Assembly: GCA_965205265.1 (NCBI GenBank)
Contig: CBDBGH010000003.1
Location: 1,056,001 to 1,120,000, forward strand
DNA from: Alphaproteobacteria bacterium
GTDB taxonomy: Bacteria > Pseudomonadota > Alphaproteobacteria > Bin95
Length of the DNA stretch: 64,000 nucleotides
Direction: 5' to 3'
The translations under genes and the position numbers were made by a program. The notes beneath the pieces are model-generated. The model worked only from the letters and a program-made list of their open reading frames with translations, was not told the DNA's origin and searched no databases. Of this stretch, positions 1-15,215 are shown in pieces. Every line of letters begins with the position of its first letter. Within the stretch, counting starts at the first letter, position 1.

Positions 1-793
1 GGGCATGGATGTCCTGGTCCGGGCCGCGCAGGACCGCGTCCTCGCCGACGGCGGGGGCAAGCTCTTCGACGGCCTGGAAGGCAGGCCGGAGGAGGAGCAT
101 GCGGTGGACCTGCCGGCGCGGCCCGGCCAGAAGGCGCGCACGGCCCGCATCTCGGTGCGCTTCGGCGCGGTCACGCTCCGGCGTCCGAGGCACCGGGCCG
201 CAGAGCCCGGCACGCCGGAGTCCCAGCCCGTCTTCCTCGTCGAGGCGCGCGAACGCGACCCGCCTGCGGGGGTGCCGCCTGCGCACTGGCGGCTGCTGAC
301 CAGCCACCGGGTCGAAACGCACGACCAGGCCCGGTGGATCACCCGGCTCTACCGCAGGCGCTGGACGATCGAGCAGCTGTTCCGCACCGTCAAGACCAAG
401 GGCTTCGACATCGAGGCCGTCTCCATGGAGACCGCCCCGTTCCGGGTCCTGTGCGCCATGACGCTCGTCGCCGGCGTCTCCTGCCTGCAACTCGTTCAGG
501 ACAGGGACGGCGAGGGCGCCCGCCCGCTCAGCGACGTCTTCGACGAGGCCGACAGGACCGCCCTCGAAGCTGTCTCGGCCACGCTCGAGGGTGGCACCGA
601 AAGGCAGAAGAACCCACATACGCCGGGCTCGCTGGCCTTCGCCGCCTGGGTCTGCGCACGCCTGGGAGGCTGGACCGGCTACTACGGCAAACCCGGGCCC
701 GTGGTCATGCTGAAAGGGCTCTACGAGTTCAGGGCCATACAGCTCGGCTATAACCTCGCTCTGGAAAGAGCCGGAAATGTGTGAATCCGGTAG
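1..793 (+). mobile_element. IS4 family (IS50/Tn5-like) insertion sequence, right part; left end lies outside the window
   Basis: Transposase ORF runs into a terminal sequence TGTGTGAATCCGGTAG (778-793; reverse complement begins CTA, as in IS50-group ends), followed directly by a truncated palindrome arm. Confidence 0.8.
2..784 (+). CDS. IS4 family transposase, C-terminal part (5' truncated by window)
   Basis: WRLLTS motif, YREK signature YRRRWTIEQLFRTVK, and Tn5-type C-terminal ARLGGWTGYYGKPGP. Confidence 0.92.
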   Translation, partial: GMDVLVRAAQDRVLADGGGKLFDGLEGRPEEEHAVDLPARPGQKARTARISVRFGAVTLRRPRHRAAEPGTPESQPVFLVEARERDPPAGVPPAHWRLLTSHRVETHDQARWITRLYRRRWTIEQLFRTVKTKGFDIEAVSMETAPFRVLCAMTLVAGVSCLQLVQDRDGEGARPLSDVFDEADRTALEAVSATLEGGTERQKNPHTPGSLAFAAWVCARLGGWTGYYGKPGPVVMLKGLYEFRAIQLGYNLALERAGNV

Positions 794-901: not shown

Positions 902-2023
902 CTACAACGCAGCGTAGCGCCTCAGGTGGTAGTCGTTGTCGCCGAAGCTGCGGTCGATCATGGTGAGGCGCTTGAAATAGTGGCCGGCGGCGTATTCGTC
1001 GGTCATGCCGATGCCGCCGTGAAGCTGGATCGACTGCTGGCCGACGAAGCGGGCCGACTTGCCGATCTGCACCTTGGCGGCGGACATGGCCTTCTTGCGG
1101 GCGTCCGCATCCTCCTCGTCGATGCGCATCGCCGCCATCATCGCCATCGACTTCGCTTCCTCATGCGCGATGAACATGTCCACCATGCGATGCTGCAGCA
1201 CCTGGAAGCGCCCGATGGGCTGGCCGAACTGCTCGCGCGTCTTGAGATATTCGAGCGTCATGTCGTTCAAGGTGCCCATCAGGCCGACCGCCTCCGCCGA
1301 CACGGCTGCAATCGCCCGGTCCACGACTTCCTCCACGGTGCCGAGCCCGCCGTCCACCTCGCCGAGCACATCGCCCGGCGTGTTGTCCAGCGTGACCTCG
1401 CCGGCCCGGAGGCCGTCGGCGGTCGGGTAACCGCGCACCGAAAGGCCGGCCGCATCCCTGTCCACCAGGAAGAGGGTGATGCCCTCCGCATCGCGCGAGC
1501 CGCCGGCCGTGCGCGCCGACACGACGAAGCGGTCCGCCGTCGGCGCGCCGAACACGACGCTCTTCATGCCGGAGAGCCTGTAGCCGCCATTCGCAGCCTC
1601 GGCCCGGACCTCGACATCCTGGAGGTTGTAGCGGGCCTGGCGCTCGGCGAAGGCGAAGGCGAGCTTGCACCTGCCTTCCGCAACGGCGGGCAGGATCTCG
1701 GCCTTCTGCTCTTCGGACCCGGCCGCCGCGACCGCGCCGCCGCCCATGACGACCGTGGAGAGGTAAGGCTCCGCGACCAGACCGTTGCCGATGGCTTCCA
1801 TGACCACCATCGTCTCGACGCCGGACATGCCGAGGCCGCCATGTTCCTCCGGGAAGGGGATGCCGAGCCAGCCGAGCTCCGCGAATTGGGCCCAGTGCTC
1901 GTCGGACCAGCCCTGCTCGGTGGCCACCAATTGGCGCCGCGCCTCGAAGCTGTAGTTCTCGCGCACGAAGCGCTGCACGCTCTCCTGCAGAAGCTGCTGG
2001 TCCTCGGAATAGTCGAAGTCCAT
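902..2023 (-). CDS. Acyl-CoA dehydrogenase, PimD-like small subunit
   Basis: MDFDYSEDQQLLQESVQRF start, REQFGQPIGRFQVLQHRMVDM, QLHGGIGMT; downstream of a PimC-like gene. Confidence 0.9.
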   Translation of the reverse strand: MDFDYSEDQQLLQESVQRFVRENYSFEARRQLVATEQGWSDEHWAQFAELGWLGIPFPEEHGGLGMSGVETMVVMEAIGNGLVAEPYLSTVVMGGGAVAAAGSEEQKAEILPAVAEGRCKLAFAFAERQARYNLQDVEVRAEAANGGYRLSGMKSVVFGAPTADRFVVSARTAGGSRDAEGITLFLVDRDAAGLSVRGYPTADGLRAGEVTLDNTPGDVLGEVDGGLGTVEEVVDRAIAAVSAEAVGLMGTLNDMTLEYLKTREQFGQPIGRFQVLQHRMVDMFIAHEEAKSMAMMAAMRIDEEDADARKKAMSAAKVQIGKSARFVGQQSIQLHGGIGMTDEYAAGHYFKRLTMIDRSFGDNDYHLRRYAAL

Positions 2024-2069
2024 GGCCTGTCCCTGTTCCTTCCCGTCTGCGGGCGCCGTCCGGAGGCTA

Positions 2070-3239
2070 TTAAAGGCCGAGCACGGCCTTGGCGATGATG
2101 TTGCGCTGGATCTCGTTCGAGCCCCCGTAGATGGAGGCCTTGCGCCAGTCGAAATAGCAGGCCGTGGCCCCGGCCGCCTCGCTCGGGCCCACGGGCGGCT
2201 CGTTCCAGCCCCGGGCGAGCGCGCGCTCGATGAAGGGATGCGCGAAATAGCCCTGCGCCTCCATCAGCAGCTCCATCACGTCCTGCTGGATTTCGGTGCC
2301 GCGTATCTTGAGCAGCGAGGCTTCCGCGCCGATCTCGTCATCGGCCTTCTTCGCCGCCACCATACGCAGATAGGACCAGCGCAGGTCCTCCAGCGCGGCG
2401 CCCGTCCCGGCGATGCGGCGGGAGAACTCCGGATCGCGCCCGTCGTCGATCTCCTCCAGCCGGTCGAGGCGCTGGCGGCAGAGCCCGACGCCGGCCGTGC
2501 CGGAGCGCTCATGGCCGAGCAGGTATTTGGCGCAGGTCCACCCCTTGCCCTCGTCGTAAATCCGCTCCGAGACCGGCACGCGGACATCCTCGAAGATCAC
2601 CTCGTTGAAGTCCGACATGCCGCTGAAGCGGTCTATCGGGCGCACCGTGACTCCGGGCAGGCTCATGTCGATCAGGAGGACGGAGATGCCGTCCTGCTTC
2701 TTGCCGGAGCTGTCCGTGCGCACCAGCGCGAAGCACCAGTCCGCCCAGTCGGCGTTGGTCGTCCAGACCTTGCGGCCATTGACGATGTAACGGTCGCCGT
2801 CGCGCACCGCCCGGCAGCCGAGCGAGGCCAGGTCCGAGCCGGAATTCGGCTCCGAATAGCCCTGGCACCAGATGACTTCGCTGGAAAGGATGCCCGGCAG
2901 GTGGCGCGCCTTCTGCTCTTCCGTGCCGAAGGCAAGCAGCACCGGGCCCACCATCTGCGGGCCGAAGGGCACTGGCCCCGGCGCGCAGGCGAGGTAGCTT
3001 TCCTCCTCGAAGATGAACCGCTGCGAGGGTGTCCAGCCGGGCCCGCCCGCGGCTTCCGGCCAGTTGGGGCACATCCAGCCGCGTTCGGAGACGGCGCGCA
3101 TCCAGCCGACGACATCCTCGCGCGTGAGCAGGCTGCCGTCCCTCACCTTGTCGCGCACATCCTGCGGGAGCCGCTCCCGGATGAAGGCGCGCACCTCGTC
3201 GCGGAAGGCGCGGTCTTGCTCAGCAACTTCCATGTGCAT
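2070..3239 (-). CDS. Acyl-CoA dehydrogenase, PimC-like large subunit
   Basis: WCQGYSEPNSGSDLASL, SIYGGSNEIQRNIIAK; start set at MHMEVAE with GAGGGAGG RBS. Confidence 0.9.
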   Translation of the reverse strand: MHMEVAEQDRAFRDEVRAFIRERLPQDVRDKVRDGSLLTREDVVGWMRAVSERGWMCPNWPEAAGGPGWTPSQRFIFEEESYLACAPGPVPFGPQMVGPVLLAFGTEEQKARHLPGILSSEVIWCQGYSEPNSGSDLASLGCRAVRDGDRYIVNGRKVWTTNADWADWCFALVRTDSSGKKQDGISVLLIDMSLPGVTVRPIDRFSGMSDFNEVIFEDVRVPVSERIYDEGKGWTCAKYLLGHERSGTAGVGLCRQRLDRLEEIDDGRDPEFSRRIAGTGAALEDLRWSYLRMVAAKKADDEIGAEASLLKIRGTEIQQDVMELLMEAQGYFAHPFIERALARGWNEPPVGPSEAAGATACYFDWRKASIYGGSNEIQRNIIAKAVLGL

Positions 3240-3316
3240 GATCGTCCCTCCCTCACCCGAGCGGGAGGCTAGGGCCTTAGCCCAGCCGATACAACCCGCC
3301 GCCTCGTCCGCAGTGT

Positions 3317-3799
3317 TCAATCCAGTGAGACCTCGGGAACGAGCCTGAGACCGTTCTTGTTCAATCTGCGCCGCTGAGGAGAATTGCGGGGAATTCGGAT
3401 CTTGTCCGTCGCGAGCCAAAAGTAGCGTTTGTCGGCATTGCTGCGGTCGGCCATCCTGCGCAGATCGTCGCCTTCGCAGGCCAGCCAATCGCGCAGTTGT
3501 TGCAGCTTGGCCAGGACAGGGGCGACTTCGCCCGTCTCGGCCTTGTGGACCTCGATCCAGACAGCCCGCTCAGCGCCGGTCTGCGGCCGGTAGCCGATGC
3601 CATAGTCCCAGCGCGGTGCATTAGCGTATCGGGGTACCGGTCGAAGCGCCGCGTCGAGGTCGATGCTTCCCGTCAACCGGTCGTCATCCGCGCAGGATAC
3701 TCTGCGTCGATGATTTCCCCGAAGAGCCTGCAAACGGGGCCGCCATGCTCCGTTGACGGGAGCCGGAGCCGCCTCTACCGCCCGCCTGAACGCCGTCAT
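3317..3799 (-). CDS. Hypothetical protein (160 aa), possible PD-(D/E)xK-like nuclease, partner of the ABC ATPase
   Basis: ATG overlaps the ATPase stop (ATGA at 3796-3799); motifs SIDLD, PRWDYGIGY, VWIEVHK. Confidence 0.75.
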   Translation of the reverse strand: MTAFRRAVEAAPAPVNGAWRPRLQALRGNHRRRVSCADDDRLTGSIDLDAALRPVPRYANAPRWDYGIGYRPQTGAERAVWIEVHKAETGEVAPVLAKLQQLRDWLACEGDDLRRMADRSNADKRYFWLATDKIRIPRNSPQRRRLNKNGLRLVPEVSLD

Positions 3800-4959
3800 C
3801 CCCGCGCGTCTGCCCGGTTCGCAACCTCGGCCACAATGTCCCCCGCATGGCCGGAAAATTCCGTCAAGCCGCCCCAGCCGCTCTGCGCCTCGTCCTCCGA
3901 GCCGGGGTCGAGTTCGGAAATATCCCGAACCCTGCCGTCGCGGGCGAAATAGTAGGTTTTCAGCATTCCGTTCAGCGCAGCCTCGGCAATGCCTCGCGTC
4001 GCCGGGTTCAGGGGCAGGTTCAGAAGGCGGGTAACGTCCCTCGCAGTCCCGCCGTTCTCCTGGAGGAAACGGAGCGCCCAGACCATATCCAGCACATGAG
4101 GCGAATGGGTGGAAAGGCAAACGCGGTATTCGCGCCGCAACAGTTCCAGCACAAGATTCAGGACCGCGTTAATGGCGTTCGGATGCAGCCCGGTTTCCGG
4201 CTCCTCGACCACGACCCATTCGACGTCATTCCGGCGCGGTGTCGCGGCGGGCGGTAGCAGCCAATACAAGCCGAGAAGCAAAGGTACGAACTCTCGCTGC
4301 CCGGCAGACCATACCGAATAGGGGAGCGGGCGACCCCTCCTTCGCTGCAGGATCAGACGGCTTTGGTGACCGGAGGTGTCGGAGCGCAAGCCGAAGCGGC
4401 CGAAGATGTGCGTTGCGAGCGGGTCCCGGAGCGCTACATTCAGGCGCCCTTGTCGTGGAAAAACACTCTGGTTCAGGCCGATTTCCGTTTGCACGATCCA
4501 GTGCAGCTTGTCGCTGAAATCTCTCAATACGAAAGGGTCTCCGGCCCGGTAATCGCTGAACGGTCGCGTCATGCCGTCCCGCAGGCTCATCACCCGCTGC
4601 GCCGGGATATAGAACATGCTTTCTTGAGCGCTTCCGGACCTGCGGCTGCGGCCGTAGCTGCCCAAGTCCGTATCGTTTCTTGCATTGCCGAGCGTCAGAC
4701 GGCTGCTTTCAGCGTTCCATACAGCCGACATGCCCTCGCCCAGATAGAGATCGAGAAAGGCGGCGAAGTCGCTGCGCCACGTCATTCCGAAGCGCTGCAT
4801 GGTTTCGTGAATTGCGTGCTTGTCCTGAAGCAGTTTCAGAATCTGGAGAAAAATGCTCTTGCCGGTGGCCTGCGGCCCGACGAATACGGTCAGGTTGCCC
4901 AACCGGATGTCGGCCTCGCGGATCGGCCCGATATTACGCGCCCTTATCCGCTCGACCAT
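3796..4959 (-). CDS. AAA_15/AAA_21-type soluble ABC ATPase
   Basis: N-terminal NIGPI, Walker A GPQATGKS, YIPAQR, signature WSAGQ, Walker B/D-loop VVVEEPETGLHP, H-loop STHS; no TM partner. Confidence 0.92.
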   Translation of the reverse strand: MVERIRARNIGPIREADIRLGNLTVFVGPQATGKSIFLQILKLLQDKHAIHETMQRFGMTWRSDFAAFLDLYLGEGMSAVWNAESSRLTLGNARNDTDLGSYGRSRRSGSAQESMFYIPAQRVMSLRDGMTRPFSDYRAGDPFVLRDFSDKLHWIVQTEIGLNQSVFPRQGRLNVALRDPLATHIFGRFGLRSDTSGHQSRLILQRRRGRPLPYSVWSAGQREFVPLLLGLYWLLPPAATPRRNDVEWVVVEEPETGLHPNAINAVLNLVLELLRREYRVCLSTHSPHVLDMVWALRFLQENGGTARDVTRLLNLPLNPATRGIAEAALNGMLKTYYFARDGRVRDISELDPGSEDEAQSGWGGLTEFSGHAGDIVAEVANRADARG

Positions 4960-5030
4960 GGTTTCGAGGCCTCCGAAACGCCCGCCTCCATCCTAGCCGC
5001 CGCAGGGTGAACCGCAAGCGCAAGCTTCGG

Positions 5031-5366
5031 TCAGAACATCCGGCCGCCGTCGGGGACCGGGCGTTCGGGGGCGAGGAGGACGACCTCGCCGTCTTTGTCC
5101 GGGAAGCCCAGCACCAGCACTTCCGACATGAACTTGCCGATCTGCTTTGCCGGGAAATTGACCACGCCCGCCACCTGGCGCCCGACCAGCGCTTCGGGGT
5201 CGTAGTGGACGGTCAACTGGGCGGAGGTCTTGCGCTCGCCGATCTCCGGGCCGAAATCGACCCAGAGCTTGATCGAGGGCCGGCGCGCCTCGGGGTAGGG
5301 CTCCGCGCGCGTGACGGTGCCGACCCGGATATCGACCTTCAGAAAATCCTCGAACGCTATCGTCAC
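5031..5366 (-). CDS. csaA: tRNA-binding protein / chaperone CsaA
   Basis: FEDFLKVDIRVGTV, SAQLT, VVNFPAKQIGKFMSEVLVLG; GTG start. Confidence 0.92.
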   Translation of the reverse strand: MTIAFEDFLKVDIRVGTVTRAEPYPEARRPSIKLWVDFGPEIGERKTSAQLTVHYDPEALVGRQVAGVVNFPAKQIGKFMSEVLVLGFPDKDGEVVLLAPERPVPDGGRMF

Positions 5367-5456
5367 CCTCGTTCCCCCCACCCCGGAGCGGCGCGGACCA
5401 TGGCGCAGGAGCGGCCCCGCCGCAAGACACCCTGTTGCCGGTAGGCGGGACTGCCT

Positions 5457-5633
5457 TCAGGCGTCGTCTTCGGGAACGTCGAGGCGCTTGCCGTCGAGTT
5501 CCCGCTCGCGGCGGGGGCCATCCGGGTCCGGACGGGCTGCGCCCTGCCGAGCGCGCCGCTCCTTCGCCTTCCTCTTCCTGGAGGCGCGCGTTGCAGCCTT
5601 ACGCGCCTTGTTCAGATTGACGATCTCCGCCAC
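5457..5633 (-). CDS. DUF4169 family small protein
   Basis: (M)AEIVNLNKARK...LDGKRLD pattern; usual neighbour of asmA in Alphaproteobacteria. Confidence 0.7.
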   Translation of the reverse strand: MAEIVNLNKARKAATRASRKRKAKERRARQGAARPDPDGPRRERELDGKRLDVPEDDA

Positions 5634-5698
5634 CGGCCTGTCCGCTTCGTGTAGATTCCGGCTTTCGCCGGCCGGGACCCTATCACCGCGGAGGCGCA

Positions 5699-8491
5699 AT
5701 GCGCAGACTTTCCGTCATCGCGATGGTCGTCGTGCTGGCCGCCAGCGGTCTTGCGGCCATTGCGTGGCAGGGTCCGCGCGCCCTCGACTGGTCCCATCTG
5801 GAACCGCGCCTCCAGGAGGCGCTGGGCCGGGAGGTTTCCCTGGACGGCCCGGTCCGGCTGGACCTCTTGCCAAGGCCCGTTTTGACGGTCGGCGGCATCT
5901 CCGCCATCGACATCAGCGTGAGGGAAGCGAGGGCGGTTCTGGATATCGGAGCCCTGCTCGCCGGCAGCCTCGAGATCGACAGGCTGGAGTTCTCCGGCGT
6001 CGAACTAACCTTCGACCGGTCCTTTGTGAGGCCGCTGCCGCCGCTTGCCGCGCAGCACATCCGTTTCGAGGACAGCAGCATCGCTTTCGGAAAGGCGCTC
6101 GTGCCGGTCGAAACCGCGACATTGACGGTCAGGGGTTCCGAAGGCCCGTATCGGCTGGAAGCGAAGGCGGCGCTGGAGGGGCGGCGAATCGATATCGCGG
6201 CCTCGGTCGGGAAATGGCGGGACCGCACGTCCGTCACCGTCTCGGTCGGCGATGGCGGCATTGAGGCGGTTGCCGTGGGCGCGGTCGAGAAGAACCCGGC
6301 GGCCGGCTTTGTCTTCTCCGGGCGGTTCTCCCTGCGAGGAGCCGCCGGATCGGCGTGGGCCGGCACATTCGATTCGGAGTTTCTGCTCGGTCCCGACGGG
6401 GCCCGCTTCACGGGCATCGATGCCGTGGTGGCGGACCAGCGTTTCACCGGCGCGATTCGGGCGGACTGGCGGGGGGGGACCGAGATCGATGCGCGCCTCT
6501 CGACGCGCACGCTGCTTTTCGACAGGTGGCGCGACCTGCTGCCGCAACTCGTCGGTTCGACATCGAGCGCGAGCCTGCGGCTTGCGCTCGATGCCGGCGC
6601 GGTCAAGTTCGGCGACCGGACGGCGCGGAGGGTCGAAGCGGCGTTCCGCACCGATGCGGACGGGTTCCGGATGGAACGGCTGGCAGCAGCGCTGCCGGGT
6701 GGAACGCGGCTGGAAATGGCCGGAGAGGGCCATGAGAGCGCCGCCTTCTCGCTGAAGACCGGAAACCTGCGCGCCCTGCTGCGCTGGCTCGGGATTCGCC
6801 CCGGCGCCGTTGAGGAGGCGCGCCTGCGCGGCCTGGAAGCGGACGGACGGCTGCGGCTCGCCGGGCGCGGGGTTTCGCCGGAGGCGCTGCGGGCGCGGTT
6901 GGAAAGCGCCGATTTCGCGCTAGAGGAGGTTCGCGGGCGCATCGACGGCGCCCGGATCGAAGGCGGTTTCGGGCGGCAGGGGGGGCAATTCGAAGCCCGG
7001 CTGGAGGCCGAAGGCCTGCCGCTCGACGCCTACAGGCCGGCATTCGAGGGCCGCGACCTGTATCCGGGCAGGCTGCATCTGGACCTTGCGCGGACGCGGC
7101 TGCTCGGCGTCCCCGTCGCCAGGCTGCAATTGGCCGCCGAACGGGCAGAGAACGGAGAGATCGTTCTGGCCCGGCTGGCCGTCGAGGATGCAGGCGGCCT
7201 CTCGGGCGAGGCGAGCGGCAGGTTTGGCGGTGAAGCCGCCTCGTTCGAAGTCGCGGGCCGGACGACCGACCTCGACCGCAGCGCCCGCCTTTACGGCTTC
7301 CCGCTCCCCGTTGTCGCGCGGGGTTTGGGCGCCGTCGAGTTCGAAGGCCGCGGCGACGGCCTGCCGGACCTGCTGCCGATAGACTTCCGCGCCGATGCCG
7401 GCGGCCGGACGCTGCGCCTCTCGGGCGAGCTCGCCGAGCGGAGGCGCTTCACGGGGCGCGTCGAGTTCGAAGGTCCGCTGCCGCCGGTCTTGCGGCTGTC
7501 CGGCAACGACAGGCCCGCACTGGCGGCGGCGTCGGTGTCGGCCGGGCGCGACCGCGCCGATTTCACGGATATCGATCTTCGTCTCGGCACGGCCCGGATG
7601 CAGGGGAGCGCCTCTCTCTCGCTGGACGGCGAGCGGCCGGCGGCGCGGGTCGCGCTGACGGCGGTCCGCGTCGATTTGCCGGCGCCTTCCCCGAATGTCC
7701 CGGTCTGGCGGCGCAGGCCGTTCGAGACCGGCCGCTTCGGCGCGTTCGACCTGGAGCTGGAGCTCGGGGCGGATTCGCTCGGCATCGGCGGGGAGGTGCT
7801 GGAAGACGTGAAGCTCGACCTTTCGCTCTCGCCCGAGGCGTGGCTGGTGAAGGCCGCCACGGCGGGCTGGCGCGGCGGGCGGCTCGCGTTCGACGGCTAC
7901 CTGACAGGAGCGGGCCGCGCGCTGCTGAAAATGAGAGTGCGCGATGCCGTCCTGCCGGAGCGCATGGGTTTCGGACCGAGCGGCGCCCGGACCGGCGGGT
8001 TCCTCGGTTTCGCGGCCGAAGGCCGCAGCCTGCACGATATGGTCTCCACGCTTTCCGGCACGGCAAGCTTGGATTTCTCCGGCGGGCGTCTGGCCGGCGT
8101 CGCTGCAGCGGCCGCGCGATCCGCCCTGGAGGGTGCGCCCACTTCAGCGGAATTGCTGCGCCGATTGCGGAACGCGCTGGTTTCGGGCGACAGCCCGCTC
8201 GTCTCCGGACGCCTCGAGGCCCGCATCCGGGGCGGCGTCGCAGAGCCGGTCGCCGGGAGCTTCGCCCTTCCGGGCGGGCAAGTTGCGATTTCCGGGTCGG
8301 CGGATCTCCGGCGCCGGCTGGTCGATCTCACCGGGCGGGTTGCTTTCCCCGACAGGCCGGATGCGCCGCCGCTCGGATTCTCGATTGCCGGTCCGCTTCA
8401 CGATCCCGACCGCCGGCCGGAAGTCGGGGCCGTGGAGGCCATCCTGCTGACCGGGGGCCTGGCGGGGCTCGTCAGATCGAACGCGAACTGA
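5699..8491 (+). CDS. AsmA family protein
   Basis: N-terminal membrane anchor, ALGREVSLDGPVRLDLLPRP AsmA N-domain, beta-rich repeats, AsmA-like C-terminus. Confidence 0.85.
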   Translation: MRRLSVIAMVVVLAASGLAAIAWQGPRALDWSHLEPRLQEALGREVSLDGPVRLDLLPRPVLTVGGISAIDISVREARAVLDIGALLAGSLEIDRLEFSGVELTFDRSFVRPLPPLAAQHIRFEDSSIAFGKALVPVETATLTVRGSEGPYRLEAKAALEGRRIDIAASVGKWRDRTSVTVSVGDGGIEAVAVGAVEKNPAAGFVFSGRFSLRGAAGSAWAGTFDSEFLLGPDGARFTGIDAVVADQRFTGAIRADWRGGTEIDARLSTRTLLFDRWRDLLPQLVGSTSSASLRLALDAGAVKFGDRTARRVEAAFRTDADGFRMERLAAALPGGTRLEMAGEGHESAAFSLKTGNLRALLRWLGIRPGAVEEARLRGLEADGRLRLAGRGVSPEALRARLESADFALEEVRGRIDGARIEGGFGRQGGQFEARLEAEGLPLDAYRPAFEGRDLYPGRLHLDLARTRLLGVPVARLQLAAERAENGEIVLARLAVEDAGGLSGEASGRFGGEAASFEVAGRTTDLDRSARLYGFPLPVVARGLGAVEFEGRGDGLPDLLPIDFRADAGGRTLRLSGELAERRRFTGRVEFEGPLPPVLRLSGNDRPALAAASVSAGRDRADFTDIDLRLGTARMQGSASLSLDGERPAARVALTAVRVDLPAPSPNVPVWRRRPFETGRFGAFDLELELGADSLGIGGEVLEDVKLDLSLSPEAWLVKAATAGWRGGRLAFDGYLTGAGRALLKMRVRDAVLPERMGFGPSGARTGGFLGFAAEGRSLHDMVSTLSGTASLDFSGGRLAGVAAAAARSALEGAPTSAELLRRLRNALVSGDSPLVSGRLEARIRGGVAEPVAGSFALPGGQVAISGSADLRRRLVDLTGRVAFPDRPDAPPLGFSIAGPLHDPDRRPEVGAVEAILLTGGLAGLVRSNAN

Positions 8492-9689
8492 GCCGGACGG
8501 CGCGCATGCCTGCGGCCTGCAGGGCTTCCAGCACCTGGCCGACATGGGCCTCGTCGCGCGTTTCGAGCGCGACCTCGATGTCGGTGAGCTTGATCGGCAC
8601 ATCCTCGAACCAGCGCTGGTGCTGGACATCGACGATATTGCCGCCCGCGCTTGCGATGGCAGCGGCGGCGCGGGCAAGCCCGCCGGGCCGGTCCTGTATC
8701 TCGATGCGCAGCCGGACGAGCCGTCCGCTCCGCACGAGGCCGCGCATCAGCACCGAGGCGAGTATGCGGGCGTCGATATTGCCGCCCGAGACGACGAGGC
8801 CGGTGCGCCGGTTCCTGAAACGCTCGGGATGGGAGAGCACCGCAGCGAGTGCTGCGGCTCCCGCGCCCTCCGCCACGGTCTTCTCGATTTCGGCGAGCAG
8901 TTGCACGCCGTGCTCCATGGCCGCCTCGTCCACCAGCAGGATGTCGTCGACCAGCTCGCGCACCAGCGGCAGGGTGAGCGCGCCCGGCCGCTTGACGGCG
9001 ATGCCTTCGGCGATGGTCGGGCCGCCCGGCGGCGCCGTAAGGCCCTTGAGCGCGTGGTGCATGGAGGGGTAGCCGGACGCCTCGACGCCGATCACGCGGG
9101 TTTCCGGGCTGAGGGCCCTTGCGGCGATCGCAATGCCCGCGATGAGGCCGCCGCCGCCGATGGGCACGACAAGGAAATCGAGGCCGGGCGCCGCGCGCAG
9201 CATTTCCAGCCCGACCGTGCCCTGGCCCGCAACGATGCGCGCATCGTCATAGGGATGCACGAAAGCGAGGCCCTCCGCCTCCGCGCGCTCGTGAACGAAC
9301 GCCTCGCCCTCGGCGATGGTCTCGCCTCTCAGGATCACTTCCGCACCGAGGAACTCCGCCGCCCGAACCTTGCTGAAGGGCGTCGCCTCCGGCATCACGA
9401 TGGTGGCCGGCACGCCCATCCGCGCGGCGTGGTAGGCGACGCCCTGGGCATGGTTGCCGGCCGAAAGCGCAATGACCCCCGCCCGGCGCTGAGCGTCGTC
9501 GAGCCCGGCGAGGTGGATATAGGCGCCCCGGTCCTTGAAGGAGGCGGTGTATTGCCGGTTCTCGAATTTCAGGAAGAGGTCGGCCCCGGAGATCGCGCTC
9601 AGCGTTTCCGAACGAAGGAAAGGCGTGCGCACGATGCGCCCTTCCAGCAAGCGGTCGGCCGCTTCGATGTCCGGAAAGGAAATGCTCAT
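8472..9689 (-). CDS. Threonine ammonia-lyase (catabolic type) with C-terminal ACT domain
   Basis: ASFKDRGA PLP lysine, SAGNHAQG, PIGGGGL, SGGNID, ACT domain DRPGGLAR. Confidence 0.92.
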   Translation of the reverse strand: MSISFPDIEAADRLLEGRIVRTPFLRSETLSAISGADLFLKFENRQYTASFKDRGAYIHLAGLDDAQRRAGVIALSAGNHAQGVAYHAARMGVPATIVMPEATPFSKVRAAEFLGAEVILRGETIAEGEAFVHERAEAEGLAFVHPYDDARIVAGQGTVGLEMLRAAPGLDFLVVPIGGGGLIAGIAIAARALSPETRVIGVEASGYPSMHHALKGLTAPPGGPTIAEGIAVKRPGALTLPLVRELVDDILLVDEAAMEHGVQLLAEIEKTVAEGAGAAALAAVLSHPERFRNRRTGLVVSGGNIDARILASVLMRGLVRSGRLVRLRIEIQDRPGGLARAAAAIASAGGNIVDVQHQRWFEDVPIKLTDIEVALETRDEAHVGQVLEALQAAGMRAVRLSSRSI

Positions 9690-11860
9690 TCGGGCTGCAA
9701 AAGCAAACTATGGACCGGCGCCCGGGCCGGATCGAGGGTGATATAGGCGCCGTCCCGCCAGAGTTCCACAAGATCGTCGTAATGCGGCGAGAAGGGATTG
9801 CCCGACTGTCCGACGGCCTGGATGAACCGCGACCTGTCGAGGTCTTCCAGGTCGTATATGGCCCGGTATCCGGCGCCGTGGCCGTGGCGGAACGGGTCGC
9901 CTTCGTCGCGGAAGCGCGAGCCGCCCCGGTTCACCGTGGTTGGCCCTCCGCTTGTCGCGGTCTCGCGGTTCAGGAGGCTGCCCAGCAGCGGGATACGCCC
10001 TGCGACCGGGTGCGAAAAACGCGCCCGATGCGCCTCGCCCCAGGGCGGGGTCTCGCTGCCATAGCGGTTCTGGAGGAAGGCGACGGCGCGGCGGTGCGCC
10101 AGCGCGAGCCTGTCCTTGCAGGTCTCCTTCGGTTTCGTGCGGATGTCGTCGCACCAGGCGGGGCGGTCCAGCAACGCCCGGCGGAGCACCAGCGGCCGGT
10201 AGGCCCACCAGTCGTCGAACAGCGGCCCCAGCTCGTCGGCGAACACGGCGCGCATCGCCTCGCGCATCCAGGCCATGTAGATCAGCGGCTCCGGGCGATG
10301 GCGGTCCATGTCGCCGTCCCACGCCCGGAGGCGCATATCGGGAACCGCCGCCAGCAGGTGAGGCAGCAATTCGCGCGCCGAGAGCGACACCGTGTCGTTC
10401 TGTACCGTCGCATGGTCCGCTTGCGCATTGAGCAATTCGTGAATCCTGATTGCGCGGTAGGGCGCCTCCCATTCGCGGCCGAGATAGTAGCGGTAGGTTT
10501 CGTCCACGAGGCGGTTGTTGGCGTTGACGATGCGCCCGGAAAGGGGCGCGGCCCGATGCGGCAGTCGGTCGAAGGGAATGAGGCGGGACCATGTCGTCTT
10601 CTCGGATACATCGAAGCCGCCGCGCCGGTCCGGCACCCGCCCCGGCGTGACGATGCCGATGCGGCCGGTTCTGTCCGCATAAACGATGTTCTGCTGCGGG
10701 GAGTGGAAATTGCGAAGCGCCGCGATGAACTCGGGCCAATTCTGCGCCCGGTTTACACCCCCGAGCGCCTCGGCGGTGCGGTCGTCGTCGCGGAAGGCCG
10801 GGCTCTCGACCGCCCAGCCCTCGGGCAGCGCATCGGAGAAATCGGAGACGACGACGCCCTTTCGGGTCCGGCGCAGTTCAAGCTCGACGCTTTCCTCCCA
10901 GCGCACCGCTATCGTCTCGCGGCGGATCGCGGTGACCTCCGGTTGCGTGACGACATCCGCAGTATCGGTGTGGGGCGTGGTCAGGCCCCAGGCGATGCTG
11001 CCGTTGTGGCCGAGCACCATGAAGGGGACCCCCGGCGCCGTAGCGCCCGCCAGCGCGCCTTCCGGCGTCTCGATGCGCGCCAGGTACCAGATGTTCGGGA
11101 TCGTCAGGCCGAGATGCGGGTCGTTGGCGAGCACGGTCGGCTCGCTGACGGCCCAGACATTCGAGGCCCCGCTGCTGCCGAGGCCAGGCAGGGTCACGGG
11201 GTCGTCCACCGCGGCGAGCGGCCACAGGTCCTCTATCCGCTCCGGCGTCAGCCGCTCCGCCATGCGCGCGCGCAGCGCCTCGGCCCGCCAATTGCCGATC
11301 AGCCTGAAGGCCATGACCCGCCCCCAGAGCATCGAATCCGCGACGCTCCAGGGCTCCGGGTCGTAGAACAGGATTGCGAGTTCCCAGGGGAGCGCTCCGC
11401 TGTGCGCGCCCAGCCAGGCGTTCACGCCGGCGGCGTAGGCTTCTGCGACCCGCCGCAGGTCGGGCGGGAGCGCGGCCGCCTGGCTTTCCGCCTGCTGCCG
11501 AAAGCCGAGGCCGCGCGCATAGCGGTCGAAGTCGAGCGCCATGCTTCCGACGAGTTCGCTCATGCGCCCGGACGCGCCGCGCCGCATGAGTTCCATCTGC
11601 CCGAACCGGTCCTGCGCATGGGCATAACCCAAGCCGAAGGCGGCGTCGGCCGGATTGGCGGCCCGGATCGTCGGCACGCCGTAGCGGTCGCGCAGGATCC
11701 GGACCGGCCCTTCGAGGCCCGGCAGGCGCAATTCGCCGTCGAGTTCGGGCAAGGAGGTGCGCAGCCAGAGCAGCCCGGCTGCGACGGTCGCAATTACGGC
11801 AACCGGCAGGGCGATGGCAAGGCGCAGCGTCCAGCGCCGCAACCGCCGCCGGATGTTCAC
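9686..11860 (-). CDS. Penicillin acylase family Ntn-hydrolase (acyl-HSL acylase-like)
   Basis: RDRYGVPTI, GYAHAQDR, GASNVW (Ser nucleophile), LANDPHL, GQSGNPFSPHYDD; N-terminal TM anchor; GTG start. Confidence 0.9.
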   Translation of the reverse strand: MNIRRRLRRWTLRLAIALPVAVIATVAAGLLWLRTSLPELDGELRLPGLEGPVRILRDRYGVPTIRAANPADAAFGLGYAHAQDRFGQMELMRRGASGRMSELVGSMALDFDRYARGLGFRQQAESQAAALPPDLRRVAEAYAAGVNAWLGAHSGALPWELAILFYDPEPWSVADSMLWGRVMAFRLIGNWRAEALRARMAERLTPERIEDLWPLAAVDDPVTLPGLGSSGASNVWAVSEPTVLANDPHLGLTIPNIWYLARIETPEGALAGATAPGVPFMVLGHNGSIAWGLTTPHTDTADVVTQPEVTAIRRETIAVRWEESVELELRRTRKGVVVSDFSDALPEGWAVESPAFRDDDRTAEALGGVNRAQNWPEFIAALRNFHSPQQNIVYADRTGRIGIVTPGRVPDRRGGFDVSEKTTWSRLIPFDRLPHRAAPLSGRIVNANNRLVDETYRYYLGREWEAPYRAIRIHELLNAQADHATVQNDTVSLSARELLPHLLAAVPDMRLRAWDGDMDRHRPEPLIYMAWMREAMRAVFADELGPLFDDWWAYRPLVLRRALLDRPAWCDDIRTKPKETCKDRLALAHRRAVAFLQNRYGSETPPWGEAHRARFSHPVAGRIPLLGSLLNRETATSGGPTTVNRGGSRFRDEGDPFRHGHGAGYRAIYDLEDLDRSRFIQAVGQSGNPFSPHYDDLVELWRDGAYITLDPARAPVHSLLLQPE

Positions 11861-11870
11861 GGCAGCCGGC

Positions 11871-13052
11871 TCATGCGGACGCCGCGGCAGTGCGCGCGGC
11901 CAGTTCCTCGAGGATTCGCTCCCGGTCCTGATCGACGTCCGGGGCCGTGGCGCGGGACGCCGGGTCGTCATAGCCGGAGAGCTTGATCGGGTTGCCGGCA
12001 ACCTTGAGCCGGCCGGCGGTCGGGTCGTCCACCTCGACCACCATATTGCGCGGCTCCACCTGCGGATGCGCCATCACGGTGGCGATGTCGTTGATACCGC
12101 TTGCCGGGATTCCCGCCGGGTCCAGCAGGGCGAGCCAGTCGGCCGTGCTGCGGGCAGCGAGAATGGTCTCGATCTCGGCTTCGAGGCCTGTCTGGTTCTG
12201 ATTGCGCAGATTGTTGGAGGCGTAGCGCGGATCGTCCTTCAGGTCGGCCCGGTCGAGTATGTCGCAGAACCGCCGGAACATGACATCGTTGCCCGCCGCG
12301 ACCACCATCCAGCCGTCCAGGGTCCGGAAGGTCTGGAAGGGCGTGATCGAGGGATGCCGCCCGCCGAGCGGCCCCGGCGATACGCCGGTTGCGCCGAAGC
12401 GGGCGACTGCGTTTTCGCAAAGCGCGATCTGGCAGTCGAGCATGGAAACGTCGAGCTTGCGGCCCCGGCCGGTGCGGCCCCGGTCGTAAAGCGCCGTCAC
12501 AATGCCGATCGCGGTGAACAGCCCGGCGCCGATATCGCCGATGGACATGCCGACACGGGTCGGCTCCTGGCCCGGCTGGCCCGTGATCGACATGATGCCG
12601 CCCATCGCCTGCACGACCATGTCATAGGCCGGACGCTTGGAGTGCGGGCCGGAATGGCCGAAGCCGGAGCAGGCGGCGTAGATCAGGGCCGGGTAGCGGT
12701 CCTTCAGGTCCTCCCAGCCATAGCCGAGCTTCTCCATTGTGCCGGGGCGGAAATTCTCCGCCACCACATCGGCACCGGCAAGCAGCGCCTCGAAAACCGC
12801 GCGGTCGCCGTCGTCCTTGAGGTCGAGCGCGATGCTCTCCTTGCCCCGGTTGACGGAGATGAAATAGGCGGACTTGCCGTTGACGAAGGGACCGTATTCG
12901 CGGGCATCGTCGCCGCGGCCGGGCGTTTCCACCTTGATGACGCGGGCGCCGAGCTCGGCGAGGATCATGGTGCTGTAAGGCCCTGCCAGCACGCGCGTGA
13001 GGTCGATGACGGTGACGCCGCTGAGCGGCCTCTGGGTCCGTTGGTTCGGCAT
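11871..13052 (-). CDS. Class III CoA-transferase (CaiB/BaiF)
   Basis: DLTRVLAGPY, NRGKESIALDLK, ENFRPG, catalytic D in SIGDIGAG. Confidence 0.93.
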   Translation of the reverse strand: MPNQRTQRPLSGVTVIDLTRVLAGPYSTMILAELGARVIKVETPGRGDDAREYGPFVNGKSAYFISVNRGKESIALDLKDDGDRAVFEALLAGADVVAENFRPGTMEKLGYGWEDLKDRYPALIYAACSGFGHSGPHSKRPAYDMVVQAMGGIMSITGQPGQEPTRVGMSIGDIGAGLFTAIGIVTALYDRGRTGRGRKLDVSMLDCQIALCENAVARFGATGVSPGPLGGRHPSITPFQTFRTLDGWMVVAAGNDVMFRRFCDILDRADLKDDPRYASNNLRNQNQTGLEAEIETILAARSTADWLALLDPAGIPASGINDIATVMAHPQVEPRNMVVEVDDPTAGRLKVAGNPIKLSGYDDPASRATAPDVDQDRERILEELAARTAAASA

Positions 13053-13160
13053 GGACGATGCGGTCCCCGGTTGCGGATGCGGAGGCCCAGCATAACCCCG
13101 ACCGTCCTGCCGTCACAGGGGCGGGAGCATGCCGGTCAAGCCAAATCTGTCTTCAGGTCT

Positions 13161-14399
13161 TTAGTCCGTATAGATGCCATCCGCCGGGAAGAACGGACGG
13201 ACCAGGCCGTTTCCAACCAGCTCGGCAAATCGGCGATAGTTTCCGAGTTCCTGTCGAACCCTTCCGGCCGCAATGGCGGGATGGACCTCTGCTTCCCGCG
13301 CCAGAGCGACAATCTTCAAAGCCGTAGCCTGGGCTGCATCGAATGTTTGCCACAACTCCGGCGGAAGTAAGGCGTTTCCTGCCATAGCGTCGGCTTCCCG
13401 TTCGCGCTGCGCCTCGTCATTGTCGTTTCCGGGTTGTCTCAACGTCATGTCGTCCACGTAAATGGGAAAGCCTTCGCCGTCGGCATCGCCGAGATGGAGA
13501 AACACGTGGGCCAACTCGTGCAGCAGGCAGAACCAGAAATTGTCGAGGCGGTCATGGCGCAGTGAGAGGGCCACCATGGGCGCGCCGTCCGGGCTGCGCA
13601 TTGCGGCCCCGTCCAGATAGGTCCTGTTGAGGTGGCGGAGTACAAGGAAGCGGATACCGGCTTCGCGCATTCCGGCGACTGCTTTCCGCGGGCCGTCCGG
13701 CTCCGCGCTCAATCCGGCGAGTTCGCGGAGGAAAGCGGGACCGTCGATCTTCCGGGCGTCGAAGCCGGTATCGAGCGGCCGATCCTCGCTAGCCATTCTC
13801 ATGGCCTGTGCGCACCAGGCTGTAAGCGCGTGGGGCTCCGCCATCGCGTTTTCGCGCGCGCCACGGCGGAATGATGCTGTAGCGCCATCCGAACCGAATG
13901 CATCGGTCAGGAAAGAACGGATTAGCTCTTCGCCCTTGTCCGAAACGGACTTTACCGCCGGCAGCCAGCCGCGCCGGATCATTTCCCGAACCGGGAAGCG
14001 CCTCCAGTCGCAGGCGGAATCCTCCGGTAAAGATGCGCCCGGTCGCCCCAGAAGAATGTCGGCCGGAATGCCGAGATGGACATGCAGGGCTCGGATCATG
14101 CCCAAAGTCAGGTCGCGCCGGTTGTTCAAAACCTCATAGACGCGGTTGCGGCCGCCAAAGTAGGGAGCCACGTCGGCGGCCGTCAGTTTGGCCTGGTCCA
14201 TTCGGAAGCGGATGGCGTCGATCGGGTCGGGAGGCCCGATCGGAGTTGTGCGACGTTCGTAAGCCTCGATCGCCAGGGCCAGCATCTCCAGTTCATCCTG
14301 CTGGTCGGGACTGCGGTTTTGCAGGACCATGAGGTCGTTGAGTCGCTCCAGGGCCGGCTCGTAATCGGCTTCCGTCCTGACGGGACGGACAATATCCAT
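13161..14399 (-). CDS. higA: HigA-type HTH antitoxin fused to an ImmA/IrrE (peptidase M78) domain
   Basis: PPDPIDAIRFRMDQ...RVYEVLNNRRDLTLGMIRALH HTH; RLDNFWFCLLHELAH (HExxH) and EREAD. Confidence 0.9.
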   Translation of the reverse strand: MDIVRPVRTEADYEPALERLNDLMVLQNRSPDQQDELEMLALAIEAYERRTTPIGPPDPIDAIRFRMDQAKLTAADVAPYFGGRNRVYEVLNNRRDLTLGMIRALHVHLGIPADILLGRPGASLPEDSACDWRRFPVREMIRRGWLPAVKSVSDKGEELIRSFLTDAFGSDGATASFRRGARENAMAEPHALTAWCAQAMRMASEDRPLDTGFDARKIDGPAFLRELAGLSAEPDGPRKAVAGMREAGIRFLVLRHLNRTYLDGAAMRSPDGAPMVALSLRHDRLDNFWFCLLHELAHVFLHLGDADGEGFPIYVDDMTLRQPGNDNDEAQREREADAMAGNALLPPELWQTFDAAQATALKIVALAREAEVHPAIAAGRVRQELGNYRRFAELVGNGLVRPFFPADGIYTD

Positions 14400-14420
14400 G
14401 GCTTTATGCTCCTTCAGTTC

Positions 14421-14717
14421 TCAGACGGTGTTGGCATCGATATGGTCATATTCGGCATGGGTGCCGATCCATCGAACCCGGACGATCTCTCCAACGAATT
14501 CGACCACGGCGATCAACCTGTACCGATTTCCCTTTATCCGAAAGACGATCCGTTGGCCTCCGGGCAAGACGGACGCTCTCGGGTAACGCGATGTTATGTC
14601 CAACGGATTCTTCCAGGACGCGCCCTCGACCTCCGCCGTCCATGCCCGCAACGGTCCGTTCAGATCGGGATGTTTCCGGATAGCCGTATCGATAAGGCGT
14701 CTGCCCACGATCCTCAT
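14421..14717 (-). CDS. higB: HigB family toxin
   Basis: RIVFRIKGNRYRLI and WIGTHAEYD motifs; toxin upstream of antitoxin. Confidence 0.93.
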   Translation of the reverse strand: MRIVGRRLIDTAIRKHPDLNGPLRAWTAEVEGASWKNPLDITSRYPRASVLPGGQRIVFRIKGNRYRLIAVVEFVGEIVRVRWIGTHAEYDHIDANTV

Positions 14718-14760
14718 ACGTAAATTCCTTTTGAACCATGTGGTGCATATTTACTTCCTC

Positions 14761-14830
14761 CCCAATAGAGGGATATATATTATTAGTATAATATCGAGTG
14801 TCAATATATATGTCCTAATTTAGGATATAT
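14761..14830 (-). promoter_or_regulatory. sigma70-like promoter and putative HigA operators for higBA
   Basis: AT-rich island; minus strand TTGACA (14804-14799), 16-bp spacer, TAATAT (14782-14777); palindrome ATATgTCCTAAtTTAGGAtATAT (14808-14830); related site CCCAATAGAGGGATATAT at 14761. Confidence 0.6.
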
Positions 14831-14927
14831 CGTGAAGCGCCCCGTGTCCCGTTCGCCGCCCGCCTTGAAGCCCGCAGGCGGACGGGGTATCGGTGCGGCT
14901 GGAATTTCCCCGGGGGGAGCGGCGCCG

Positions 14928-15215
14928 ATGGCGTTGGACCGCGCGACCGTCGAGCGCATTGCCGCGCTCGCCCGCATCGAGATCGCCGAAGAGGAGGCGG
15001 ACGTGCTCGCCGCCGAACTCGGCGCAATCCTGGGCTGGGTCGAAACCCTGAACGAGGTCGATACCGACGATGTGGCGCCGATGACCTCGGTTGGCGGCCA
15101 CAGCCTGCCCTGGCGCGCCGACGAGGTGGATGACGGCGGCTACCCGGACCGCATCCTCGCCAATGCGCCCGATGCCGCCGGCGCGTTCTTCGCCGTGCCC
15201 AAGGTGGTGGAATGA
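14928..15215 (+). CDS. gatC: Asp/Glu-tRNA amidotransferase subunit C
   Basis: [17 protein letters not shown]...FFAVPKVVE. Confidence 0.95.

Follow-up and report, generated by a model that had tools for sequence, protein, structure and literature searches.

A translationally coupled ABC ATPase and small nuclease-like partner from an alphaproteobacterial genome match the phage defence candidate family PDC-M56

Several phage defence systems combine an ATP-binding cassette (ABC) ATPase with a nuclease. In Septu and PARIS a sensor ATPase works with a nuclease; PtuA with the HNH nuclease PtuB, and AriA with the TOPRIM nuclease AriB, respectively. In PARIS, AriB stays bound by AriA and is set free by a phage trigger such as Ocr. 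In OLD and GajA a TOPRIM nuclease is fused to the ATPase itself. HEC-02 comprises the ABC ATPase HEC-02A and the NERD protein HEC-02B, and its published description reports experimentally confirmed phage defence. Here we describe a two-gene cassette at positions 3317-4959 of a 64,000-nucleotide stretch of DNA, hereafter the window, from an Alphaproteobacteria bacterium (GenBank assembly GCA_965205265.1, contig CBDBGH010000003.1, positions 1,056,001 to 1,120,000 of the forward strand). A first-pass annotation had read this cassette as a distinct anti-phage or toxin-antitoxin system made of an ABC ATPase and a small nuclease-like orphan.

Two minus-strand open reading frames (ORFs) occupy the cassette. 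The ATPase gene (A) comes first and the small-partner gene (B) second:

3796..4959, minus strand: ABC ATPase A, 387 residues (P0002); PADLOC PDC-M56A, Pfam AAA_21/AAA_15; from the ORF and profile matches
3317..3799, minus strand: partner B, 160 residues (P0001); PADLOC PDC-M56B; predicted restriction-endonuclease-like fold; from the ORF, a profile match and an AlphaFold2 model
3796..3799, minus strand: ATGA start/stop overlap of the A stop (TGA) and the B start (ATG); translational coupling; from the sequence

Both proteins match one family of PADLOC-DB v2 along their length. Protein A aligns with PDC-M56A (1.5e-140, 466.6 bits, residues 3-381 on 2-379 of 382) and protein B with PDC-M56B (8e-37, 124.5 bits, residues 2-158 on 6-149 of 151). 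The genes are adjacent, on one strand and ordered as in PDC-M56; adjacency is taken as the PADLOC rule for PDC-M56 by reading, not from the rule file. Judged by these profiles, the cassette is a member of the PADLOC candidate family PDC-M56, with nothing to distinguish it at family level. Hence, the idea of a distinct, uncatalogued system falls to two full-length matches, and the cassette is already described in a weak sense. PDC stands for phage defence candidate. Payne et al. (bioRxiv 10.1101/2024.01.29.577857) describe 145 single- and multi-gene PDC systems. These were derived by guilt-by-embedding; BREX, DISARM and type I restriction-modification loci were the source of the embedded genes, and the systems entered PADLOC as explicitly untested candidates. 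We infer that the "M" in PDC-M56 means multi-gene, because letter-suffixed components occur in the M series and none occur in the S series.

The start of B is the ATG at 3799. As first proposed, an ATPase with a full motif set is coupled through ATGA to a 160-residue protein; ORFs, overlap and motifs were all seen. Homologues of A number at least 3554 at E<=1e-20. For B, a word-index search returned 133 homologues at E<=1e-3, all annotated "hypothetical" and devoid of Pfam domains. A profile search over every protein found, at E<=1e-3, 1217 cluster representatives (50% identity), 925 of them at E<=1e-10. Both genes are under purifying selection, with ratios of nonsynonymous to synonymous substitution rates (dN/dS) of 0.09-0.16 (A) and 0.25-0.26 (B). 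Identity to L001, a collinear relative, is 92% for A and 76% for B. Homologue numbers and dN/dS thus confirm, as far as comparison of sequences can, that A and B are genuine genes and not chance ORFs. The cassette is also poorer in GC than its neighbours, as the first-pass annotation had noticed. Its GC content is 0.623, compared with a window mean of 0.688, and lies among the lowest 1.1% of 1643-bp windows. GC at third codon positions (GC3) is 0.742 for A and 0.708 for B, against 0.856-0.912 for five neighbouring genes.

Protein A belongs to the ABC ATPase superfamily, given its five motifs and its structural matches. Pfam detects AAA_21 (2.8e-19), AAA_15 (3.7e-15) and nothing else in A; NCBIfam has no family above cut-off for A or B. 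Motif conservation was judged on a 32-sequence alignment (A2):

4855..4878, minus strand: Walker A, G28-P-Q-A-T-G-K-S35; G28, Q30, A31, G33, K34 and S35 invariant in 32 sequences
4594..4605, minus strand: Q-loop, P119-A-Q-R122; invariant in 32 sequences
4288..4311, minus strand: ABC signature, W217-S-A-G-Q-R-E-F224; W217, S218, G220, Q221, R222, E223 and F224 invariant
4195..4215, minus strand: Walker B and D-loop, V249-V-V-E-E-P-E255; E252, E253 and E255 invariant
4102..4113, minus strand: H-loop, S283-T-H-S286; invariant in 32 sequences

The same alignment has a conserved C-terminal block, LDPG...WGGLTEFS, at residues 350-369. An AlphaFold2 model of A (mean predicted local distance difference test score, pLDDT, 89.4; predicted template-modelling score, pTM, 0.90) consists of an ATPase core with helical C-terminal elements. 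No TOPRIM or other nuclease domain is found in A by Pfam or in the model. Foldseek returned 159 matches at E<=1e-3 in the Protein Data Bank (PDB), which are ABC ATPase heads. Septu PtuA (8eea, 2.3e-7) and retron-associated PtuA lead the ranking, with Rad50, GajA and SMC heads next. By sequence profile, the best PDB matches are the OLD-family nuclease 6p74 (2.5e-11), PtuA 8ee4 (2.2e-6) and GajA (~3e-5). The PADLOC models that rank next after PDC-M56A all describe defence ATPases, namely AriA (1.2e-19), HEC-01A, NsnB, Old, GajA and HEC-02A.

These relatives allow the cassette to be set against described systems. PtuA provides the closest solved structures to A (8sux, 9n69 and 9e90 also rank high), and the two-gene ATPase-nuclease layout of Septu, including retron-associated PtuAB, is common to the cassette. 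However, A is not a PtuA by NCBIfam NF041760 (E=0.24; 10.3 bits, where the cut-off is 500), and the likeness is structural only. PtuB is an HNH nuclease, whereas neither Pfam nor PADLOC gives an HNH match for B, and the predicted fold of B is restriction-endonuclease-like. AriA of PARIS is the best named PADLOC match after PDC-M56A, with a second AriA model at 3.7e-17, but these matches cover only A residues 200-291 or 242-289, the C-terminal ATPase motifs, and not the full length. Unlike AriB, B matches no TOPRIM or DUF4435 model. The ATPase core of OLD and GajA is related to A, by the PDB matches above and by the PADLOC Old and GajA models, but the nuclease-like protein of the cassette is a separate gene with a different fold. 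The initial statement that the partner lacks HNH and TOPRIM motifs is borne out; no Pfam model exceeds its cut-off and the sole PADLOC match at E<=1 is PDC-M56B.

HEC-02 resembles the cassette in having an ABC ATPase and a separate partner of the PD-(D/E)xK superfamily, by virtue of the NERD domain in HEC-02B and by prediction in B. Hence, the pairing of an ABC ATPase with a PD-(D/E)xK protein is not new, and HEC-02 is an already validated example. The two systems differ in sequence. Protein A matches HEC-02A models at 4.6e-10 and 3.7e-9, far more weakly than PDC-M56A. Protein B has no match to HEC-02B or to Pfam NERD, is much smaller, and has E-x-H in place of the canonical motif.

No Pfam, NCBIfam or PHROG family exceeds its cut-off for B. 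The AlphaFold2 model, built from a 42-sequence alignment, is very confident (pLDDT 95.7, pTM 0.90; 150 of 160 residues score at least 90). The N-terminal part contains helices (H) and strands (E) in the order H3-10, H28-31, E34-36, E42-47, H48-52, E66-70 and E78-85. The C-terminal part continues with H89-108, H111-117, E126-130, H141-148, E151-154 and E157-159; the long helix 89-108 spans EVAPVLAKLQQLRDWL. Within this model the core runs alpha-beta-beta-beta-alpha-beta (H3-10, E42-47, E66-70, E78-85, H89-108, E126-130), the order that defines a restriction-endonuclease-like core. The top Foldseek match in the PDB is the FokI cleavage domain (7.3e-2; query-normalised TM-scores, TMq, of 0.31-0.36). 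Rows 1-16 are all nucleases (FokI, Mus81, SwaI, Cdn1, MspI, NucS and TnsA), and lower rows include BamHI, MspJI, XPF, Avs3 nuclease, N.BspD6I, AgeI, EndoMS and AspBHI. Clearly unrelated proteins account for 7 of the 38 listed rows. Named but non-significant matches in BFVD include VRR-NUC, UL24, ERCC4, endonuclease, endodeoxyribonuclease I, DUF2726 and head-completion nuclease. Steczkiewicz and colleagues are said to have assigned the families named there to the PD-(D/E)xK fold in 2012. High scores in the ESM Atlas all belong to clusters without a name. PDDEXK_11, the nearest cluster with a name, reaches 0.76, short of the 0.9 level of the tool, and serves as a lead only. We conclude that B probably has the restriction-endonuclease-like fold that was first suggested, because the fold-search lists cohere, although each match is weak alone and the model is a prediction.

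Some matches to B were set aside. Single Pfam matches to DUF2726 (0.0051) and AHJR-like (0.066) among 119 family representatives are at chance level, as are sequence-level matches of B to Peptidase B (0.026) and C-reactive protein (0.59).

Residue conservation in B was followed in two sets obtained by profile search; 144 family representatives aligned by script, and an independent MAFFT alignment of 119 representatives. The 40 genome loci discussed below were found by searching for the stretch RWDYG, so its invariance among them is circular; the sets of 144 and 119 are free of this bias. In the MAFFT alignment S45, D65, E83, H85, K98 and W128 are invariant, against a mean column identity of 34%. 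The 144-member set gives the following picture:

3665..3667, minus strand: S45, in beta-strand 42-47; 144/144 representatives
3605..3607, minus strand: D65, immediately before beta-strand 66-70 and at the position of the "PD" aspartate; 144/144, AlphaFold2 model
3545..3553, minus strand: E83-V84-H85, in beta-strand 78-85 and at the (D/E)xK position; E83 144/144, H85 144/144, AlphaFold2 model
3506..3508, minus strand: K98, in the helix after the E-x-H strand; 143/144, and 119/119 in the MAFFT alignment
W64: 143/144 representatives
D49: D in 130 and E in 13 of 144 representatives

The motif of B reads R63-W64-D65 followed by W81-I-E-V-H-K86, with a family consensus of W-[IV]-E-V-H-P-A. The RWD...WIEVHK pattern and following helix, picked out at first reading, are present, but K86 is mostly P in relatives and is not conserved. 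By contrast, the proposed E-x-H variant of E-x-K is supported; D65 and E83-x-H85 are invariant and sit at the canonical D...(D/E)xK positions of the model. Histidine occupies the place of the canonical lysine, and an extra invariant lysine, K98, lies in the following helix. As aligned, the motif is a variant and not a canonical PD-(D/E)xK. The invariant Ser and Lys, with His for Lys, leave room for the possibility of chemistry that departs from the canonical two-metal mechanism, such as RNA cleavage. In the B homologue at locus L011 (2754-3206), G replaces E83, a residue invariant elsewhere; the change marks a naturally inactive variant or else an error in the sequence of the metagenome-assembled genome (MAG).

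To examine linkage we used 40 loci, all from MAGs, fetched via B with one conserved peptide pattern from an alignment of 42 relatives. By tblastn, 37 of the 40 have an ATPase homologue immediately 5' of B. In the remaining three (L021, L036 and L037) B is less than 180 bases from a contig end; hence, 37 of 37 testable loci are linked, in line with the expectation that homologues of the two genes would travel together. An NTGA overlap in the B frame is kept in 29 of the 37 (20 ATGA, 8 GTGA and 1 TTGA). Pairwise distances for A are correlated with those for B (Pearson 0.86, calculated on 325 pairs taken from 26 loci), a value reached by 0 of 2000 Mantel permutations. The correlation shows co-inheritance of A and B as a unit; alone it is no proof of physical interaction. 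A prediction of the A and B complex, run without controls, gave ipSAE values of 0.00 and 0.11 against a mark of 0.32, and speaks neither for nor against binding.

Among 72,556 plasmids a single record contains B; the complete plasmid CP007054.1 of Opitutaceae TAV5, which is mobilizable (MOBF). This is also the sole plasmid with A at E<=1e-20, immediately upstream of B. The B homologue on this record (L041, 8001-8462; 41.6% identity, 1e-30) has no annotated coding sequence, and the upstream ATPase is annotated "hypothetical protein". Annotation pipelines have probably missed the B gene elsewhere too. One metagenomic protein, P0162 (389 residues), joins the first ~215 ATPase residues in frame to a full B domain (match 240-388). 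It has no signature, Walker B or H-loop. Judged from its sequence, P0162 is probably a deletion or frameshift product and not a functional fusion. It is the only A-B join among the 150 best B profile matches; P0237 (274 residues) has an unrelated N-terminus.

The host MAGs belong to Alphaproteobacteria, Gammaproteobacteria, Desulfuromonadales and Thermodesulfobacteriota, and further to Terriglobia, Verrucomicrobiota, Planctomycetota, Anaerolineae and Trueperaceae. L001 is collinear with the window from 902 to 13793 (84.5% identical nucleotides), and the two share the insertion site of the cassette. Hence, insertion predates the split between the window genome and L001. Some copies are disrupted. 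At L006 (3787-9995) the A gene is split by an insertion of ~5 kb, with the N-terminal part at 3787-4083 and the C-terminal part at 9102-9995; the insertion carries a 788-residue Transposase_29 protein (8.2e-108). Gene A also looks frameshifted in L007, L010 and L040. In L006, L007 and L010, where A is disrupted, every conserved residue of B is still present.

On balance we favour, with real reservation, a reading of the cassette as a horizontally acquired two-gene ATPase-gated nuclease module within the ABC-ATPase defence superfamily, and a PDC-M56 member. Briefly, A would dimerise or oligomerise through a nucleotide sandwich. Co-translated B would be bound by A and kept inactive. A phage-derived cue, or a change of nucleotide state sensed by A, would then free or activate B. 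In this scheme B would be a minimal restriction-endonuclease-fold enzyme with an active site formed by S45, D65, E83-x-H85 and K98. It would cut nucleic acid, either phage DNA or host or phage RNA or tRNA, and so stop infection. Complex formation, nuclease activity, substrate, trigger and anti-phage phenotype are steps that we only infer. By analogy with HEC-02, which is validated, and with Septu and PARIS, the best-supported logic would have the ATPase sense and the small nuclease-fold protein cut. The layout of sensor-type ABC ATPase plus small nuclease-like partner, as envisaged in the first-pass annotation, fits the data; the best matches of A are defence ATPases and the predicted fold of B is nuclease-like. 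Since the family is listed as a phage defence candidate, a role in phage immunity is plausible.

Several observations weigh against a gated defence nuclease. A search of the accessible literature found no publication that names or tests PDC-M56. PMC12881386 reports tests of eight PADLOC candidates, of which only four protected, and PDC-M56 is not among the eight. No homologue of B was found in 50,697 phage records, and no PHROG family contains it. The histidine in place of lysine means that catalysis by B may differ or be absent. Pfam finds no common family among the 119 B representatives even at E<=10, a PDB sequence-profile search with B finds no solved relative, and Foldseek gives no match at E<=1e-3 in PDB or BFVD (TMq 0.2-0.36). 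Intact B beside disrupted A is awkward if free B is strongly toxic, but could be explained by polar loss of expression or by MAG assembly errors. In the window, the neighbours of the cassette are CsaA and acyl-CoA dehydrogenase genes, and at 31 of the 40 loci every neighbour within three called ORFs is metabolic, housekeeping or unassigned. The latter agrees with a remark by Payne et al. (10.1101/2024.01.29.577857) that candidates derived from embedding show less association with other defence systems. Overall, locus context gives modest support for defence.

A selfish addiction module is one alternative. Here B would be a toxic nuclease and A its ATP-dependent neutraliser, with no dedicated anti-phage role, and the pair would be maintained as a stress module or through post-segregational killing. 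A toxin-antitoxin pair would suit the two small, overlapping genes, their patchy occurrence and foreign composition, and the copy on a plasmid, as well as the 31 of 40 loci that stand solo among housekeeping genes. The Pfam label for AAA_21 is "putative AbiEii toxin, Type IV TA system". However, a simple pair predicts lethality where A is lost, and B is intact where A is disrupted by an insertion sequence or frameshifted (L006, L007 and L010). Moreover, A is the more conserved protein (92% compared with 76%; dN/dS 0.09 compared with 0.25), unlike a typical labile antitoxin, and its structural relatives are defence sensors. We consider such an origin unlikely, noting that toxin-antitoxin and abortive-infection roles are not mutually exclusive. 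We accord an equally low probability to B as a new effector class, a minimal restriction-endonuclease-fold enzyme of ~150-160 residues in which the non-canonical S45/D65/E83-x-H85/K98 centre would act, for example, as a His/Lys acid-base RNase or tRNA nuclease. If true, the cassette would be an ATPase-gated RNA-targeting abortive-infection system whose effector has no sequence-detectable solved relative.

Non-catalytic proteins with a restriction-endonuclease fold exist. B might be an inactive adaptor or nucleic-acid-binding subunit that would direct or regulate the ATPase, the effector being the ATPase, either by itself or by way of a host nuclease. The canonical Lys of (D/E)xK is His, the structural matches of B are weak, and the N-terminal domain of Rpb5 is among its BFVD matches. 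Conservation argues otherwise; five polar residues are invariant or nearly so in 144 representatives, compared with a mean column identity of 34% in the set of 119, and they occupy canonical active-site positions, which is more typical of a catalytic centre than of a binding surface. An inactive B is, in our estimate, distinctly improbable. The least likely alternative is a DNA-repair or genome-maintenance module, with a Rad50/SbcC/RecF-like ATPase and a structure-specific nuclease of the Mus81, XPF or NucS type, which we think very doubtful. Rad50 and SMC heads do occur among the structural matches of A, Mus81, XPF and NucS/EndoMS among the weak matches of B, and many loci have housekeeping neighbours. 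Yet the pair is sporadic across phyla, with neighbours that differ at nearly every locus, its GC3 is far below that of host genes, and some copies are disrupted by insertion sequences or frameshifted. The best matches of A are defence proteins (PtuA, OLD and GajA) and not repair proteins, and A, at 387 residues, has no coiled-coil insertion of Rad50 or SMC length. The addiction module, the inactive B and the repair module are each less consistent than the ATPase-gated nuclease with the conservation pattern, the ATPase relatives and the sporadic distribution.

If the cassette does act in defence, it adds one more effector to the ABC-ATPase defence superfamily (OLD, Gabija, Septu, PARIS and HEC-01 to HEC-04). 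The addition would be a restriction-endonuclease-fold protein of very small size, in which His replaces the catalytic Lys. No new category is opened, the pair being already predicted as a defence candidate. PDC-M56B is widespread (1217 representatives) and absent from Pfam and NCBIfam, so many environmental genomes would be better annotated if its function were known. Being small, with a confidently predicted fold, it would lend itself to study of the way in which a nuclease is restrained and released by an ABC ATPase.

We scanned the neighbourhoods of the 40 loci, taking up to three ORFs per side (186 ORFs in all) from a crude ORF caller that makes errors in high-GC DNA. Pfam was run on all 186, and PADLOC on 110 plus 3 more from L024; the 76 left out of the PADLOC scan had clear metabolic Pfam matches. 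A defence, toxin-antitoxin or mobile-element gene was found within three called ORFs at 9 of the 40 loci:

L001: Fic protein, PDC-S24
L006: transposase; PDC-S01
L007: DDE_3 transposase
L010: three transposases
L014: type ISP/IIG enzyme; PemK/MazF toxin
L017: PDC-S64
L022: PIN_10
L024: type IIG/DrmMI/PglX-like methyltransferase; two PDC-S01; HKD+Snf2 helicase
L030: PIN

We do not claim defence-island enrichment from this figure, since it is a count with no baseline and is subject to ORF-caller errors. One called ORF, L001:10531-12876 (minus strand), was rejected as an opposite-strand artefact over acyl-CoA dehydrogenases. In the Verrucomicrobiota MAG L024 (2186-14311) the cassette is flanked on one side by a 1138-residue type IIG/DrmMI/PglX-like methyltransferase. 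On the other side are two DUF4143/AAA_14 genes (PDC-S01) and then a 1116-residue HKD+Snf2 helicase (C3a139, 1.2e-81; DrmD-like). L024 looks like a defence locus with embedded genes, the kind from which PDC systems were defined. The Fic-domain protein of L001 (12925-14439, minus strand; 504 residues) matches PADLOC PDC-S24 at 1.7e-187.

The immediate surroundings of the cassette in the window are as follows:

5031-5381, minus strand: tRNA_bind (CsaA-like) protein, 116 residues, upstream of the cassette; family match
2070-3242, minus strand: acyl-CoA dehydrogenase, downstream of the cassette; family match
902-2023, minus strand: second acyl-CoA dehydrogenase, downstream; family match
5-784, plus strand: DDE transposase fragment, DDE_Tnp_1, 1.1e-7; family match

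The csaA gene named at first reading is recovered here as the CsaA-like protein. The pimCD-like pair on the other side is represented by two acyl-CoA dehydrogenases, identified to family level alone. A functional meaning for the csaA adjacency was rejected, since it is common only to the collinear L001 and not to other loci. A promoter and terminator scan of 3100-5500 found 0 promoter-like and 2 terminator-like sites, and shuffled sequences give as many. A search for flanking repeats around the cassette found no convincing bracketing pair to mark an insertion. The transposase fragment at 5-784 lies just beyond position 902, where collinearity with L001 starts; L001 has the Fic gene there instead.

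A second low-GC islet of the window lies at ~12900-15300, with a minimum GC of 0.594. Inside it, positions 13161-14399 (minus strand) encode a 412-residue protein. The N-terminus is a phage-type transcription-regulator region (phrog_1373, 1.1e-21; phrog_11202, 8.5e-27) and the C-terminus is a Peptidase_M78/ImmA-IrrE domain (3.1e-6). Collinearity with L001 stops at 13793, inside this gene, possibly a further acquired module. Caution is needed with gene calls in DNA of such high GC. At 5699-8491 (plus strand) a 930-residue ORF has a sub-threshold YhdP match (1.8e-4), and two minus-strand ORFs of no family (419 and 371 residues) overlap it, within 5683-8491. The plus-strand reading has a 925-residue counterpart ORF in L001, on the corresponding strand.

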